Shown: positions 3,479-57,846, counted from the first letter of the stretch. The stretch: DNA of 64,000 bases from a virus (IMGVR_UViG_3300045988_154997:1-64000), one strand, 5' to 3'. Made by a program: numbers and translations. The notes: generated by a model from the letters alone, not told the origin.

Positions 3479-4072
3479 TTACCACTTGTTGTAAATAAAA
3501 CCAATGTCTTTCTTGTGAGGCGTATCGGCTGCGGAAAAAGCTGCGATCTTCGCGAGTCGATCACATATTTCATTTTCACGATGCCCGGCGTGACCTTTAA
3601 CCCACTTCCAGCGAACATTATGTCGACTTGCGTCCTCATCCAGACGTTTCCACAGATCAACATTCTTTACCGGTTTTTTATCAGAAGTCATCCATCCATT
3701 ACGTTTCCACCATTTCATCCACTGTGTCATGCCGTTTTTCAGATACTGGCTATCAGAGTGCAAAATAACGTTGCATGGATATTTCAAACGCTCCAGCCCG
3801 ATAAGTGCCCCCATCATCTCCATGCGGTTATTGGTGGTGCTATGAAAACCATCTGAGAACTCGCGTTCCTCACCACGATACTGGAGAACTATACCGTAAC
3901 CGCCCGGGCCACCCGGATTTTTAAGGCAAGAGCCATCACTGTAGATTTTTACGGTTTTAAGCTGGGGATTGAACTCTACGACAGGCGTTGTGGGATTGGT
4001 GCGGGGAGAATTTTTGTTTTTGGCTTTTTTGCGAGTTTTTGCTTGCGATCGGGATGGTGTCTTCGTCGTCAT
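3479..4072 (-). CDS. rnhA: Ribonuclease H (RnhA-like)
   Basis: Core [17 protein letters not shown]...[11 protein letters not shown]...HSDSQY...KPVKNVDLW...[17 protein letters not shown] aligns closely with E. coli RNase HI; start moved to ATG at 4072 (AGGAG RBS) rather than the ORF-track start at 4126. Confidence 0.8.
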
Positions 4073-4656
4073 ATAAACTCCTGAATCAAGCGCCGCGCCG
4101 ATTTTTTTCCTCGCGCGTGCGCACACGCGTGCGTGTTAATAATTATTAAAATAAACAAATTACTTCCCAGAACAGGTTTTTATAAACCTGAACTGAACGA
4201 ACGAAGTGAGTGAAGTTCACCTCGAACGAAGTGAGAGGTTGTCTTTTCAGGTAATACTCTCCCAGGGAGGTGAGTATAAAAATCCCTCACCAACCTGGTC
4301 CTTTCATAACCTGAAAAGTTATGGTCTAAGTCTACTGCCAGCTTAGACTTGGGAAGTTATGGATGACAGCACCCCAGAACCGAGATCTTCCCACACTTTA
4401 TGAAGGGGAGTACTGGATTCAACCTCTCGAAACACCCCAGACTCGACAATCATAAAGTGACCCTTGTCTCCGCTCACTTTGGTTCCCCCTTCCCCGACAC
4501 CTAAACGGCACCGGTTCTACGCTGGTAGTGAGCTTTTTTAAACCTGACGCCAGTGACGCTTACCTCCACCCATCAGGTCGAGTCTCCAGTCTACGACTGG
4601 AAACTATCAGATCTTAGCACTTACAATTCATCTTATGAATAGTTTGTACTTATCTA

Positions 4657-4911
4657 TCATTTCGATTGATTATTTTCTCGACCATGTAGTTGAACATTCA
4701 AGGCAAACACCTCATTGATCAACTCACCTAAAAGCTGTTCAACAAGTTCGCGATGCTCGCCAAGATGCAAGCACTTAATTGCCCATTCGTACAAGTTGAA
4801 AGCCTGCTCACGATCTTTCATCATTTCACGAGCCTGGGCCAGAAAATCGCTCTCTACGAGCGCAACGACATTAGTCGGGTATGACATGTTGGTTTCCTTA
4901 AAGTGGTTCAT
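4657..4911 (-). CDS. hypothetical protein
   Basis: 84-aa ORF. Confidence 0.45.
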   Translation of the reverse strand: MNHFKETNMSYPTNVVALVESDFLAQAREMMKDREQAFNLYEWAIKCLHLGEHRELVEQLLGELINEVFALNVQLHGRENNQSK

Positions 4912-20778: not shown

Positions 20779-20795
20779 TTATTCACATATCCACA
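20779..20795. promoter_or_regulatory. two tandem DnaA-box-like sequences (TTATTCACA, ATATCCACA)
   Basis: Match the TTATNCACA consensus; positioned at the outer edge of the iteron/GATC origin region. Confidence 0.5.
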
Positions 20796-20899: not shown

Positions 20900-21001
20900 G
20901 TATGCTGCCAGCGGTAATTGATAGTCTGTCAACGGTTCGCCGTATGCTACCAACTGTTTTTGGTATGCTGCCAGCGGCAAATCAAGTATGCTGTCAGCGG
21001 T
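20900..21001. repeat. iteron cluster upstream of rep: 4 copies of 'GTATGCTG(C/T)CAGCGG(T/C)' (one degenerate)
   Basis: Copies at 20900, 20942, 20963, 20986. Confidence 0.8.
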
Positions 21002-21021
21002 TGAATGACAAAGGTGTCCAC

Positions 21022-22116
21022 ATGTCCACAAAAAATAAAAAAGGTAAAAATAACAAAGAAGTAGAAGATAATCTCGACAACTTTGAAGAAGGTTCCCTTG
21101 AATTGTACACAGGGGAACTTGTCCCTAATAGCAACAATACAGTCCAACCAATTGCGTTGATGCGACTGGGGTTGTTCGTCCCCACGCTTAAGGGAACAAA
21201 ATACAGTAAACGTAACAAGCCAAATGAGATCGATGCTTCAAAGGAGCTTGTCCAGCTCGAAGTAGCCCGTTCTGAAGGCTATTCCGATATCAAGATAACC
21301 GGTCCTCGCCTGGACATGGATCATGATTTCAAAACGTGGGTGGGCGTTGTGCGTTCGCTGGCAGAATACGGCGAACCTAACGGTCGTGTCGAGTTAAGCA
21401 TCACGAAATTTGCGAAGTTTTGTGGCTATCCATCGTCACAGATCCGCAAAACACTCCGCGACCGGCTTACAAACAGTCTTTTGAAGATCATGCGTACAAC
21501 TCTGTCTTTCCAGAGAACGTATGAAGAAAAGAACGTCGACGGCTCTAACAAGATCTCGCTTCTGATGGTGCACCTCATCAATAGCGTGGACTACAACGAG
21601 CAGAAAGATACGGTGGTGTTCTATGCAGAACCGAAGCTGGCCGAACTATATCGCTTTGACCATAAGGTTCTTTTGCAGTTAAAGGTTATCAATAAGCTAC
21701 CACGCAAAGAAACAGCACAGGCTCTGTACACCTTCATCGAAAGTCTTCCAACCAAGCCTGCGCCGGTATCGCTTGCTCGATTGCGTGCGCGACTCAATTT
21801 GAGTAGCAGGAATGTCAGCTCGCAGAATCAGACTATACGCAACGGCTTAAAAGCTCTCCAAGATTTGGGTTATCTCGAATACAGCGAGATTAAGCGAGGG
21901 CGGTCGATCTATATCCAGATTCACAGCCGCAATCCAAAACTCAAAGTCGCACCGCCAAAACCTGAAGACATCGAACCCAAAAAACTAGATGAGAAAGCCG
22001 GGGAAATTGATGCCAAACAGAACATTATCAATAAGATAACCGAACTTTCGCAGAATTTGACGCCTGAAAATATCAAGATGATTGAGATCCTTTCCAATAG
22101 TCTCAAACTACTTTGA
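21022..22116 (+). CDS. repA: Iteron-type replication initiator (RepA-like)
   Basis: ORF flanked on both sides by iteron arrays; start set at ATG 21022 (AAAGG RBS) because the ORF-track start 20902 lies inside the iterons; Lys-rich N-terminus. Confidence 0.6.
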   Translation: MSTKNKKGKNNKEVEDNLDNFEEGSLELYTGELVPNSNNTVQPIALMRLGLFVPTLKGTKYSKRNKPNEIDASKELVQLEVARSEGYSDIKITGPRLDMDHDFKTWVGVVRSLAEYGEPNGRVELSITKFAKFCGYPSSQIRKTLRDRLTNSLLKIMRTTLSFQRTYEEKNVDGSNKISLLMVHLINSVDYNEQKDTVVFYAEPKLAELYRFDHKVLLQLKVINKLPRKETAQALYTFIESLPTKPAPVSLARLRARLNLSSRNVSSQNQTIRNGLKALQDLGYLEYSEIKRGRSIYIQIHSRNPKLKVAPPKPEDIEPKKLDEKAGEIDAKQNIINKITELSQNLTPENIKMIEILSNSLKLL

Positions 22117-43759: not shown

Positions 43760-43846
43760 TGGCGGAGAGTAATGGAATCGAACCATCATCGTTTGCACAA
43801 TGGGACGATTTTCAAGACCGCTTGAGCACCATGCTCCCTACTCTCC
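43760..43846 (-). tRNA. tRNA-Ser (anticodon UGA), type II (long variable arm)
   Basis: Acceptor GGAGAGT/ACTCTCC, discriminator G, encoded CCA; anticodon loop CTTGAAA; T-arm GATGG-TTCGATT-CCATT; D-arm non-canonical (A8), so needs tRNAscan confirmation. Confidence 0.6.
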
Positions 43847-44070
43847 GGCCGTTGTGGTGGCCGGTACTGAATCTCCGGCATACGGTGCAGCCAATTAGGA
43901 CTACGGACGATCACCGCTCGCGAAAGGGAAGATTTGCGGCCGCATTTCCCTAACATCCAAGAAAGCTATCGCATCAGTCTGCGAATCCACCACAACGGTA
44001 AGATCACTACCTTTCGACCAGTCATTGTGCACATGAACGACGATTAACCGTAATGATCTTATCGTTGTAT

Positions 44071-44146
44071 TGGTGCCGGTTAACGGACTCGAACCGCTGA
44101 CATCCTGCTTACAAGGCAGGCGCTCTACCAACTGAGCTAAACCGGC
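44071..44146 (-). tRNA. tRNA-Thr (anticodon UGU)
   Basis: GCCGGTT-TA-GCTC-AGTTGGTA-GAGC-G-CCTGC-CTTGTAA-GCAGG-ATGTC-AGCGG-TTCGAGT-CCGTT-AACCGGC-A-CCA; canonical cloverleaf, 76 nt. Confidence 0.85.
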
Positions 44147-44150
44147 AATT

Positions 44151-44237
44151 TGGTGGGGAGTGATGGAGTCGAACCACCCGAGTCGCAATGACAGTAGATT
44201 TACAGTCTGTCCCGCTACCTCTACGGACTAACTCCCC
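44151..44237 (-). tRNA. tRNA-Tyr (anticodon GUA), type II
   Basis: Acceptor GGGGAGT/ACTCCCC, discriminator A, CCA; D-stem GTCC/GGAC; anticodon loop CTGTAAA; T-arm GGTGG-TTCGACT-CCATC; overall similar to E. coli tRNA-Tyr. Confidence 0.75.
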
Positions 44238-44242
44238 TAAAT

Positions 44243-44317
44243 TGGCGATGGTGGGTGGATTCGAACCACCGACCAGTTGGTTAACAGCCAACTGCTCTAC
44301 CGCTGAGCTACACCATC
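44243..44317 (-). tRNA. tRNA-Asn (anticodon GUU)
   Basis: GATGGTG-TA-GCTC-AGCGGTA-GAGC-A-GTTGG-CTGTTAA-CCAAC-TGGTC-GGTGG-TTCGAAT-CCACC-CACCATC-G-CCA; canonical, 75 nt. Confidence 0.85.
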
Positions 44318-49154: not shown

Positions 49155-50300
49155 ATGAAATACATAAAATCTTCATCGTTGCTGGCATTAACTTTGCTTT
49201 TTAACTCTGGATTCGTTAACGCAGACAATAAACAAACGCTGATAGAAGCCGCTACCGCAGGGGATACCGCAGCACAAAGTGAGTTAGGTACAAATTATTT
49301 TGATGGTGTCAATGGTTTTGATAAGGATGTAGTTGAGGCCAAGAAGTGGATTGATCTAGCTGCAGAAAAGGGAGATAAAGTAGCATATTATGCACTTGGA
49401 GTTATGTACACATTTGGCGAGGGTGTAGATAAAGACCTAAATAAAGCTGTTGAGTACTACAAACTTGCGGGGGATGCTCGTGAAGGTAGAGCCTACAACA
49501 ATCTTGGTGCTATTTATCAAAAGGGGATGCTTGGTAAAGTAGATCATGCACTCGCCATTAAATACTTCAAACTAGCCTCTGATGCCGGGTATGTTAAAGC
49601 AACTTCAGTTCTTGGGGCGTATTACCAATATGGTAAAGGCGTTAAAAAGAATTATAAAAAGGCTTTTACTTATTACAAAAAGGCGGCAGACCAAGGCAGT
49701 TCAGAAGCTATGATAGGATTAGGAATACTATACGATGATGGGTTAGGCGTTAAACGCAATGATGCAGAAGCAGTTAAGTGGTATAAAAAGGCAGCGGAAC
49801 TTGGAAACGCCGACGCCATAACCAATCTTGGCATTATGTATGAGAATGGGGAAGGTGTAAAAAAGGACTATAAAAAAGCAGCCGACCTTTATCAGACTGC
49901 TTGCGATAAAGGAGAAAAAAGAGGCTGCGATTACATTGCAGAACTGAAAGAAAGCGGCAAATATCGAGCGCCGGCTTCCAAAGCCAAAACAAAATCCGCC
50001 ACCCAGCGACTTATTGCTAAATCCATTGATAAGGGCGTTAACGCTACATTTACCTGGCAGGGTGATGATGCTACCTTCACCGCTAATGATGGCAAAGTTG
50101 ACTGCACCTTCCTGAAGGATTTTTCAGAGAAAGGAGGCAATCTGGCTACCTCGTTTGTTTGCACCGACAACGTTCAAATCATCCTGAAGCAATTCAGAGA
50201 TACCAAGAATGCCTACCTCGCGGTAATGACTGACAACTTCAACACAGAAGTTAAATCATTTTCGGTCAATGTGTACGTGACTAATACTGGTTCAAACTAA
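49155..50300 (+). CDS. secreted Sel1-repeat (TPR-like) protein
   Basis: Signal peptide; at least 6 tandem Sel1-type repeats (G.GV.KD..KA..WY.KAAE.G); non-repeat C-terminal domain. Confidence 0.7.
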   Translation: MKYIKSSSLLALTLLFNSGFVNADNKQTLIEAATAGDTAAQSELGTNYFDGVNGFDKDVVEAKKWIDLAAEKGDKVAYYALGVMYTFGEGVDKDLNKAVEYYKLAGDAREGRAYNNLGAIYQKGMLGKVDHALAIKYFKLASDAGYVKATSVLGAYYQYGKGVKKNYKKAFTYYKKAADQGSSEAMIGLGILYDDGLGVKRNDAEAVKWYKKAAELGNADAITNLGIMYENGEGVKKDYKKAADLYQTACDKGEKRGCDYIAELKESGKYRAPASKAKTKSATQRLIAKSIDKGVNATFTWQGDDATFTANDGKVDCTFLKDFSEKGGNLATSFVCTDNVQIILKQFRDTKNAYLAVMTDNFNTEVKSFSVNVYVTNTGSN

Positions 50301-57069: not shown

Positions 57070-57846
57070 TTAGTGGTTGGTAGACCTGGCATCAAATGTT
57101 GTAACGCCCACTTCAATGTGGCGGTCTTCTTTGGAGATGATGGTGAGAATCTGACTAGATGGGTCTATGCTGACAGCCATAGGGTTCCAGTGACGTAACT
57201 GAGCCTCGCTGTTCAATAGCAGCGCATCCCACGGTTTGACGCCATTCTGCCCAATACCACCTTCAACAAGGACATCTATAAATTCTTTATTTAAATTGTC
57301 ATAGATTTGGACACGCCCGACCAGAAGCATACCGACCGCCCAAATTCTGGCACCGTAAACCGTCTGATGGTCATCACATACCACATGGTCATGCCAATTG
57401 AGAAGGAAATTGTAAACTCTTCTAGCAAGTCCCTTTTGTTCCTTTGAAGGGGTTACAAATGCCCCTTTGATCTGGACACCAAGGTGAGAGCCTTTTTGTG
57501 AGCGAAACTGGAAACGTTTGTAGACGAACCTGGCAATCTGAATGCCGTCATCATCTTCTTGTTCATCACCAACTAACTCACGAACACTATGAACTATCTC
57601 TGCTTCTGAATACCCCTGCTCGTCAAGATCCATTGCATGTTCTTGAAGCCAATCTGCATCAGGGTCGCCTACAAATGATACTGTCAAACAGTAATCATAA
57701 TTAGATCCCGTCAAGGACCATTCTGTGAGCCGTAAAACAGAAAAATCAGAGTTAACCATGTAGCCAACTCTGATTTTCTCTCTTGCTTCACATTCAGGGA
57801 AATCAGACAGAACTTTTGAATACTCTGCTATGAATGATGGTGACAT
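57070..57846 (-). CDS. hypothetical protein
   Basis: 258-aa ORF, start adjacent to stop of 57847..58245. Confidence 0.5.
   Translation of the reverse strand: MSPSFIAEYSKVLSDFPECEAREKIRVGYMVNSDFSVLRLTEWSLTGSNYDYCLTVSFVGDPDADWLQEHAMDLDEQGYSEAEIVHSVRELVGDEQEDDDGIQIARFVYKRFQFRSQKGSHLGVQIKGAFVTPSKEQKGLARRVYNFLLNWHDHVVCDDHQTVYGARIWAVGMLLVGRVQIYDNLNKEFIDVLVEGGIGQNGVKPWDALLLNSEAQLRHWNPMAVSIDPSSQILTIISKEDRHIEVGVTTFDARSTNH

Follow-up and report, generated by a model that had tools for sequence, protein, structure and literature searches.

An ORF-free interval in an SSU5-like phage-plasmid

The viral sequence IMGVR_UViG_3300045988_154997 was analyzed over a stretch of 64,000 nucleotides (positions 1-64000; the window), which is an SSU5-like phage-plasmid. 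Our subject is a gap of 583 bp, in which we predict a structured non-coding RNA (ncRNA) that we designate type A. Every gene around the gap is encoded by the minus strand; in the order of transcription these are a dam methylase, an open reading frame (ORF) of 76 aa (4887..4657), the gap, RNase HI (rnhA; 4072..3479), small hypothetical genes and TerB-like genes, and the surrounding module is one of phage replication and nucleotide metabolism (nrdAB, thyX, DHFR, exonuclease and dam). The gap and its flanks are 100% identical to one E. coli plasmid (NZ_CP073997.1), 97-99% identical to the phages CMS-2020a, PhiR41_1 and Cyrano, and 88-92% identical to SSU5 and Klebsiella phage-plasmids. For the searches described below, the full plasmid was rebuilt (112,588 bp; the 112.6-kb plasmid).

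An earlier note, made from the window alone, described positions 4127-4656 as an ORF-free interval that is unusually dense in repeats, palindromes and hairpins, and offered a structured ncRNA, a lytic origin or packaging signal, or a multi-operator control region as explanations. The description holds: neither strand contains an ORF of at least 60 aa (the longest is 46 aa), and each of the listed elements can be located, that is, the GC-rich palindromes GTGCGCAC (4117-4124) and CACGCGTG (4124-4131), the 13-mer direct repeat CGAACGAAGTGAG (4198-4210 and 4223-4235), the 9-mer AAGTTATGG (4316-4324 and 4354-4362), the palindromes GTGAAgTTCAC (4209-4219) and CTCCCaGGGAG (4259-4269), and the hairpins AAGTCTA...TAGACTT (4330-4351) and GGTGAG...CTCACC (4269-4291). 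By simple arithmetic, ~0.002 exact 13-mer pairs are expected in 530 bp; the AAGTTATGG pair is near chance as a bare 9-mer, but its extension gives 13/16 matching bases. The density of structure is also as unusual as had been supposed, with folding z-scores of -5.2 (minus strand) and -5.5 (plus strand) and none of 100 dinucleotide shuffles folding equally well. The description requires correction on one point: the GC-rich palindromes (4112-4136) are not part of the RNA but of the spacer that precedes the RNase H gene.

Via the RNase H protein, 80 loci were gathered, and nucleotide identities were compared across one set of genome pairs. For the ORF-free core (4104-4582) the identity is 86-93%, as against 75-82% for the RNase H gene and 75-81% for the upstream ORF; the core evolves more slowly than both of its flanking genes and is, therefore, under purifying selection. 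Within a slightly narrower core (4154-4582; 86-94% identity in relatives), the segment 4202-4241, which holds both GAACGAAGTGAG repeats, is 100% invariant in 62 non-redundant relatives.

Fold, strand, promoter and expression of the type A RNA

A consensus fold calculated with RNAalifold from 17 representatives contains 135 pairs, 12 with compensatory double changes. With 55 distinct sequences, the fold comprises 134 pairs in 18 helices (P1-P18), and 99.8% of the cells, that is, the individual pairs in the individual sequences, are canonical; when the partners are slid by 1-3 columns in the same 55 sequences, the canonical fraction is 35-48%. Compensatory double changes occur at 11 pairs, and the observed covariation score is reached by none of 500 shuffles. 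The covariation is carried by helices P1, P2, P3, P8, P13 and P18.

The same pairs also identify the strand. Read as RNA from the minus strand, 99.8% are canonical vs 88.9% when they are mirrored to the plus strand; at variable pairs, the values are 99.1% and 81.9%, respectively. Nine G-U pairs are conserved, and the alifold energy is -146 kcal/mol for the minus strand vs -116 kcal/mol for the plus strand. Because neither duplex DNA nor a plus-strand transcript would produce this asymmetry in pairing, we assign the RNA to the minus strand.

The repeats and hairpins of the earlier note, the GC-rich palindromes excepted, are thereby seen as helices of one minus-strand RNA of ~450 nt that runs from ~4604 to 4150 (Table 1). 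Its architecture is strongly supported: from the 5' end, a pair of hairpins is followed by a three-way domain, in which a G-rich strand is exposed, then by a large core with multiple branches and by the 3' domain. In the three-way domain, pair 90:148 of P3 changes from UA to CG in 17 sequences, and the variation in P4 is confined to G-U, G-C and A-U. In the core, P13 is the AAGTCTA/TAGACTT hairpin and P15 is GGTGAG/CTCACC. In the 3' domain, P16 and P17 are built from the GAACGAAGTGAG repeats and the GTGAAgTTCAC palindrome, and the apex of P18 changes from UA to GC in eight sequences.

Table 1. Features of the gap and its borders, in window coordinates; the RNA, its domains, the promoter hexamers and the 3'-end region are predictions.
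Feature	Position	Strand	Basis or remark
Predicted ncRNA 'type A', ~450 nt	4150..4604	-	Conservation, covariation, G-U strand asymmetry, RNA-seq
P1, 5'-terminal hairpin	4582..4604	-	Pairing kept across differing lineage sequences; 3/6 pairs doubly compensated
P2, 15-bp hairpin with conserved G-U pairs	4541..4579	-	3 pairs compensated, 4 invariant G-U
P3-P5, three-way domain with an invariant, mostly unpaired G-rich strand (GGGGAAGGGGGAACC)	4472..4533	-
P6-P15, central multi-branch domain	4233..4470	-	Compensatory changes in P8 and P13
P16-P18, 3' domain	4162..4232	-	4202-4241 invariant in 62 relatives; P18 apex covaries
-35 hexamer, TTCATA	4634..4639	-	17 nt upstream of the -10; position kept in all lineages
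Extended -10, TGcTAAGAT (hexamer TAAGAT, 4616..4611)	4611..4619	-
A/T-rich spacer, variable in sequence and length, U-rich on the RNA strand; likely 3'-end region	4137..4161	-
GC-rich block, flanked by the RNA and the ribosome-binding site of RNase H	4087..4136		Sequence reading and alignment
Degenerate palindrome copy (GATAAGTACAAACTA), touching the -35	4639..4653		Similarity to GTAAGTA-NN-TACTTAC
44-aa ORF CYRAN_81 of phage Cyrano, judged not to be a real gene	4343..4477	-	Broken in variants
RNase HI gene, 197 aa, downstream neighbor	3479..4072	-	Pfam RNase_H, E = 2e-44
Small ORF, 76 aa, phrog_5343, upstream neighbor and syntenic anchor	4657..4887	-	50% identity to its counterpart ahead of the type B RNA

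A conserved sigma-70 promoter for the RNA gene is strongly supported by the alignment of the lineages, with a predicted -35 (4639-4634) directly past the stop codon of the small ORF and a predicted TGn-extended -10 (4619-4611). The -35 is TTCATA, TTTAAA, TTCAAA, TTTACG or TTTACT among lineages; the -10 is TAAGAT, TAAAAT, TACAAT or TAGAAT, mostly with an upstream TG (mostly GTG before the hexamer). The 17-nt spacing between the hexamers is constant and the sequence of the spacer is free to vary; also, the distance from the end of the -10 to the base of P1 is 6-7 nt in every lineage. The homologous promoters of SSU5 and of a Klebsiella relative are recognized by a promoter scan; the promoter in the window scores 8 of 12, which is under the threshold of the scan tool. 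The 5' end of the RNA would then be at ~4604/4605, at the base of the 5' hairpin. The 3' end is probably at ~4150-4160, in a U-rich tract just past the last helix and before the RNase H gene; the A/T-rich spacer in which this tract lies shows free substitution and indels of 0-25 nt in the alignment.

A transcript from the interval, which the earlier note had proposed to look for, is present in published RNA-seq. The plasmid Cyrano in LF82 carries the element with 96.7% identity to the window, and its annotated ORF CYRAN_81 (L002:6269-6403) is located inside the element. In the LF82 transcriptome (PMC9928086), CYRAN_81 is among the 'morons' transcribed 12x above the prophage background in overnight LB. 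The log2 values for CYRAN_81 in S1 Table of that work are 6.8/6.9 (LB), 9.3/9.0 (B1) and 6.9/6.9 (B6) and, in the macrophage samples, 9.0/8.2 (MB1) and 10.35/10.3 (MB6); in the same five conditions, the values are 3.1-5.8 for CYRAN_80 and 2.6-5.0 for CYRAN_82 (RNase H). The central 135 bp of the element are, then, found at 12-40x the level of the flanking genes in LF82 lysogens in all five conditions, with a peak in macrophages at 6 h; this comparison with the neighbors points to a discrete, abundant and regulated transcript that is present while the neighbors are silent. That the RNA is made in the lysogenic (plasmid) state, in which the surrounding lytic replication and nucleotide-metabolism genes are silent, is strongly supported.

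Conservation, strand-specific covariation, a conserved promoter and published RNA-seq therefore give strong support to the first of the explanations offered in the earlier note, and we consider it likely that the interval is a stand-alone gene for an expressed, highly structured ncRNA of ~450 nt on the minus strand. Several observations weigh against this conclusion or limit its reach. The central and 3' helices P6, P7, P11 and P14-P17 are invariant or nearly so, and covariation therefore neither backs nor contradicts them. Both ends of the RNA are predictions, and the 3' end is approximate because no canonical intrinsic terminator follows the RNA in the window. The strand-specificity of the LF82 reads is not established and the counts span the annotated 135-bp ORF only; an identical read pattern would be expected if a longer transcript were processed to a stable fragment. 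No target, partner protein or complementary site was found in the 112.6-kb plasmid. Finally, no homologue was found beyond this plasmid family, so a function cannot be transferred from any known RNA.

Distribution, family searches and a second RNA in the same slot

The type A element is present in 687 PLSDB plasmids and 12 phage records, and 232 of the 5426 complete genomes of E. coli carry it; the plasmid hosts are Klebsiella, Escherichia, Enterobacter and Salmonella. That the type A RNA is a core feature of the SSU5-type phage-plasmids of E. coli, Klebsiella and Salmonella is strongly supported. Blastn of phages and plasmids gave no matches under ~84-86% identity except for two plasmid matches in the 60-80% band, an exact-block scan of one genome per species matched only two Kluyvera genomes, and an exact-block scan of IMG/VR returned mostly contigs already recovered by the RNase H search. 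As a check for mimicry of a host RNA, E. coli chromosomes were searched for partial similarity to the element, and none was found.

Known RNA families gave no match. The covariance-model search that the earlier note had suggested was performed with Rfam 15 (4227 models) and permissive cmscan settings on 3 kb and on 561 nt, with no match at E values up to 10 on the 561 nt; GOLLD and ROOL are among the models without a match in the latter search, as is C4 (RF01695) in the Rfam search of the interval. The best scores inside the RNA are 15-17 bits vs thresholds of 45-55, and a 21-bit match to a hepatitis C virus model at 4087-4141 falls on the GC-rich spacer. A scan for tRNA and transfer-messenger RNA found none in the interval, the matching segment bears no PGAP feature in those E. 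coli records that were shown, and our literature search found no description of the type A RNA. The searches for partners gave similar results: extra copies and complements in the window and the rebuilt plasmid are limited to 11-16-mers at chance level, RNAduplex interactions with the rnhA leader and with the upstream mRNA are no better than those of shuffled sequences, and Pfam and PHROGs searches with the neighboring proteins gave no hint of an RNA-binding or partner protein.

The same slot is occupied by an unrelated RNA in 30 pCAV-like Klebsiella plasmids that share the order dam, small ORF, gap and rnhA. This RNA, which we designate type B, is ~450-500 nt in length in a gap of ~560 nt (L158:3385-3900 in NZ_CP125183.1, and L159-L165), and the proteins that flank it are 50% identical to those in the window. 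Types A and B have no similarity by alignment, by profile hidden Markov model (nhmmer, E >7) or by k-mers (chance level). The longest ORF on the gene strand of the type B gap is 41 aa, the z-score of the fold is -7.8, and the sequence has no Rfam match. In eight sequences, 148 pairs are 98.3% canonical, 15 of them with compensatory changes, vs 88.6% canonical on the mirrored strand; that is, the type B RNA is on the same strand as type A. Its core is 89.5% identical vs 77-83% for the flanks in a comparison with K. oxytoca; in a second comparison, with L162, the values are 86% for the core and 95% for dam, which we read as mosaic recombination. The predicted type B promoter (TTTACT-17-TATCAT) is followed directly by a covarying hairpin, which would also terminate transcription that arrives from upstream. 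The occurrence of an unrelated RNA with the same layout in the same slot of related plasmids is the basis for regarding the RNA as lineage-specific.

A putative 'type C' RNA in Moellerella was considered and rejected, as the slot is filled by a protein-coding ORF. In this Moellerella wisconsensis plasmid (L166:2725-4150), a clear terminator comes after the small ORF, and beyond it are a 113-aa ORF and ~970 bp without a listed gene; neither RNA type was detected in the slot.

Alternative explanations and a possible role in the dormant state

Among the explanations that do not invoke a structured RNA gene, the one in the public record is that the transcript is the mRNA of a small protein, the 44-aa CYRAN_81 'moron', with ordinary untranslated flanks. 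The ORF is annotated in OV696614 and its transcription at 12x background is reported, but it starts with GTG and, in 9 of 26 distinct variants, is broken by a frameshift or a stop beyond which the nucleotides are nearly invariant; in addition, conservation spans ~430 nt and not 135, and the substitutions track base-pairing and not codon positions. We regard this explanation as having almost no chance of being correct. An element that acts purely as DNA, that is, an iteron-type lytic origin, a packaging (pac/cos) site or a cluster of operators, would account for two exact and 100% invariant 13-bp direct repeats around an inverted repeat, for an A/T-rich stretch adjoining a GC-rich block, and for an operator-like palindrome at the upstream edge. 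A duplex site is not expected to prefer G-U pairs on one strand (99.8% vs 88.9%, with 11 compensated pairs) or to be transcribed as a discrete, abundant species. The specific versions proposed in the earlier note also find no support: the 13-mer has only two copies and does not recur in the 112.6-kb plasmid, which argues against multiple operators; the gene for the large subunit of terminase is at 64.8-66.1 kb in the plasmid, ~30 kb from the element at 95.7 kb, which argues against a packaging signal; and records and contigs end near the element at differing positions, so these ends are probably arbitrary. An iteron origin, which typically has at least three evenly spaced iterons beside a Rep gene, together with DnaA boxes and an A/T-rich unwinding element, is likewise not indicated by two 13-mers when the plasmid has its own replicon 16.5 kb away, with a Rep3-type RepA (20902-22116; 404 aa, Pfam Rep3_N) and two adjacent DnaA boxes (20779-20795). 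A purely DNA-level function is, accordingly, highly improbable.

The remaining alternatives accept the RNA and differ in what it does. As a cis-acting leader or attenuator of the rnhA block, similar to the P4 immunity leader or P1 c4-icd-ant, it would be transcribed from a constitutive promoter and end before rnhA in lysogeny, with read-through on induction, or it would be processed to a small immunity RNA. The promoter and RNA are directly upstream of rnhA on the same strand; the 12-40x excess of the RNA over rnhA implies efficient termination or processing between them; the anti-repressor gene (ant) of SSU5 is located ~1.5 kb further down on the same strand; and heterotypic alleles typify immunity regions. 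The P1 c4 and P4 CI immunity RNAs are small (~70-80 nt), with a C4 fold and loops that are complementary to the downstream mRNA. The type A RNA shares with P4 CI and P1/P7 c4 its expression in lysogeny, a promoter of the constitutive type that heads an early gene block, a transcript level that falls sharply downstream, heterotypic versions in related phages, and a phage that lives as a plasmid; however, it is ~6x larger, has no match to C4 or any other Rfam family, has no complementary targets that we could find (complementarity to the rnhA leader being no greater than in shuffled controls), and is followed in the window by genes that are not regulators. A further argument against a leader is that the RNA and rnhA are separable. 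One sub-lineage in Klebsiella has an intact RNA and a two-gene cassette in place of the 5' part of rnhA; three type B plasmids retain the RNA, with a gene of the opposite orientation where rnhA would be; in a mosaic SSU5-related element (L063/L064), rnhA is 81% identical and the whole nrd-thyX-DHFR-exo-dam-smallORF-RNA block is absent; and distant RNase H loci in other phages have no upstream gap. The levels are also uncoupled: from B1 to B6, the RNA decreases by ~2.3 log2 and rnhA increases by ~0.5, and the two do not co-vary across conditions. Because the RNA is kept without an intact rnhA, rnhA is kept without the RNA, and their levels are uncoupled, the RNA is not simply the leader of rnhA; we judge that function to be quite improbable.

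The origin proposed in the earlier note survives in one form, in which the transcript is a pre-primer, as in ColE1 RNA II, the mitochondrial light-strand promoter (LSP) and the prophages of mycobacteriophages that lack RepA. A persistent hybrid of the RNA with its template would be processed by RNase H (phage or host) to start leading-strand synthesis, and the locus would be a lytic or a second plasmid replicon. The size and the complexity of the fold resemble RNA II; the gene is within a replication and nucleotide-metabolism module and, in both RNA types, directly upstream of rnhA; the RNA has an exposed, invariant G-rich strand and several G-runs; an A/T-rich stretch follows the RNA; unrelated alleles in one slot recall the incompatibility groups of ColE1-type plasmids; and the plasmid encodes, at other places, DnaE, primase, helicase, ligase and 5'-3' exonuclease. 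RNA-expressing, ORF-free origins have a precedent in the extrachromosomal prophages of mycobacteriophages, which use RNA-based origins (PMC7157519). With these and with ColE1 RNA II, the type A RNA has in common a structured RNA of ~450-550 nt that is transcribed from its promoter on a plasmid-like replicon, an ORF-free segment that is expressed in the prophage, sequences that are unrelated among lineages and an adjacent RNase H gene. It differs in that the plasmid has its own Rep3/iteron-type replicon 16.5 kb away and in that no antisense promoter of the RNA I type was found in the 5' part of the RNA (the sole plus-strand promoter-like site, at 4598-4627, is directed away from it). Moreover, DnaA boxes are not enriched and the GC skew has no inflection at the locus, the steady expression in non-induced lysogens is poorly suited to a lytic origin, some lineages retain the RNA with a truncated or replaced rnhA, and in the distant Moellerella relative the slot holds an ORF that encodes a protein. 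We retain an RNA-primed origin as an alternative, and an unlikely one.

A complex fold, strong constraint, expression in lysogeny, the lack of a long antisense target and lineage-specific alleles lead us to favor an RNA of the dormant state that acts in trans. In this proposal, the type A RNA would be neither a DNA site nor an RNase H leader; it would work as an RNA, independently of rnhA, and would be stable in the lysogenic state, either as a regulator or as part of a ribonucleoprotein. We advance its assignment as a trans-acting regulator of lysogeny or the RNA of a ribonucleoprotein as a tentative one. The pattern in the slot would be typical of specificity determinants of the immunity or compatibility type; a more speculative suggestion, which we consider somewhat unlikely, is that the SSU5-type and pCAV-type RNAs, each comparable to a ribozyme in its complexity, form a new class of large RNAs, which would confer on the dormant phage-plasmid some property peculiar to its lineage. 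Candidates for this property are the control or priming of replication by RNA and, where two phage-plasmids reside in one cell, immunity or compatibility between them.

GOLLD and ROOL are large, 'ornate' structured ncRNAs that are tied to phages and prophages. The type A RNA is similar in its size (>400 nt), its many helices and multi-way junctions with highly conserved junction strands, its carriage by temperate phages and its lack of an assigned function; it differs in that it is found in Enterobacteriaceae, is ~40 kb from a tRNA cluster and not beside one, and is expressed in lysogeny. The two RNAs described here represent a new kind of neither size nor setting, large phage-associated ncRNAs being known already, but they make up one new family or two, and the type A member is new, widespread and unannotated. 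To our knowledge, large (>400 nt) structured RNAs are rare in bacteria and phages, and most of the large classes that we know of have proved to be ribozymes, scaffolds of ribonucleoproteins or unsolved puzzles. The hosts of type A include pathogens that are among the most thoroughly sequenced: the element is carried, without annotation, by ~4% of complete E. coli genomes and by 687 plasmids, and its phage-plasmids are known to carry resistance genes; the sole transcriptome in which the RNA was detected took it for a 44-aa 'moron' gene. If the suggested new class is real, an RNA layer would be added to what is known of lysis, lysogeny and copy number in elements by which resistance genes spread in Enterobacteriaceae, and the second, unrelated RNA in the slot provides a natural swap system for the role of the RNA in dormancy, replication or compatibility.

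Several further features of the plasmid family were recorded. The cassette in the Klebsiella sub-lineage (L072:1217-2829; also L073, L074 and L082) encodes proteins of 222 aa and 315 aa and replaces the first ~92 codons of rnhA; by eye it is not similar to an insertion sequence and may be a defence or accessory insertion. A cluster of tRNA genes (Ser, Thr, Tyr and Asn) is located at 43760-44317 on the minus strand, and the plasmid also has a gene for methionyl-tRNA synthetase. Three 9-mers that resemble DnaA boxes (one mismatch each) occur within 45 bp at 49388-49432, in or adjoining a gene beside those for primase and helicase; these could be due to chance or could hint at a lytic origin.

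The GC-rich block between the RNA and rnhA contains a 25-bp, perfectly alternating purine-pyrimidine tract (4112-4136), a run of seven A/T (4102-4108) and a GC inverted repeat. The alternating tract is of a Z-DNA-prone type, and the substitutions in relatives preserve the alternation; the type B loci are without it. The length of the A-run varies from 5 to 9 among relatives. In SSU5, the public call for RNase H (SSU5_090; L001:5387-6151) is 57 codons too long and extends through the GC-rich tract toward the RNA.

The palindrome at the upstream edge of the RNA promoter belongs to a dispersed A/T-rich set, GTAAGTA-NN-TACTTAC (often ATAAGTAAGTAnnTACTTACTTAT), with eight copies in the window (3467, 5682, 19918, 35408, 45069, 48428, 53692 and 59916) vs 0.09 expected, and copies at 57820 and 77165 in NZ_CP073997.1. 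The copies that were checked are located in short gaps between co-directional genes, some at or adjoining a stop codon, and the set is a candidate for a scattered operator or activator site of the phage-plasmid. The degenerate copy at the RNA promoter in the window is better kept in SSU5 (GGTAAGTACTTACC), in Klebsiella (GTAAGTAAGTAGTTAC) and ahead of the type B RNA, so that a copy or variant of the palindrome stands before the promoters of both RNA types.

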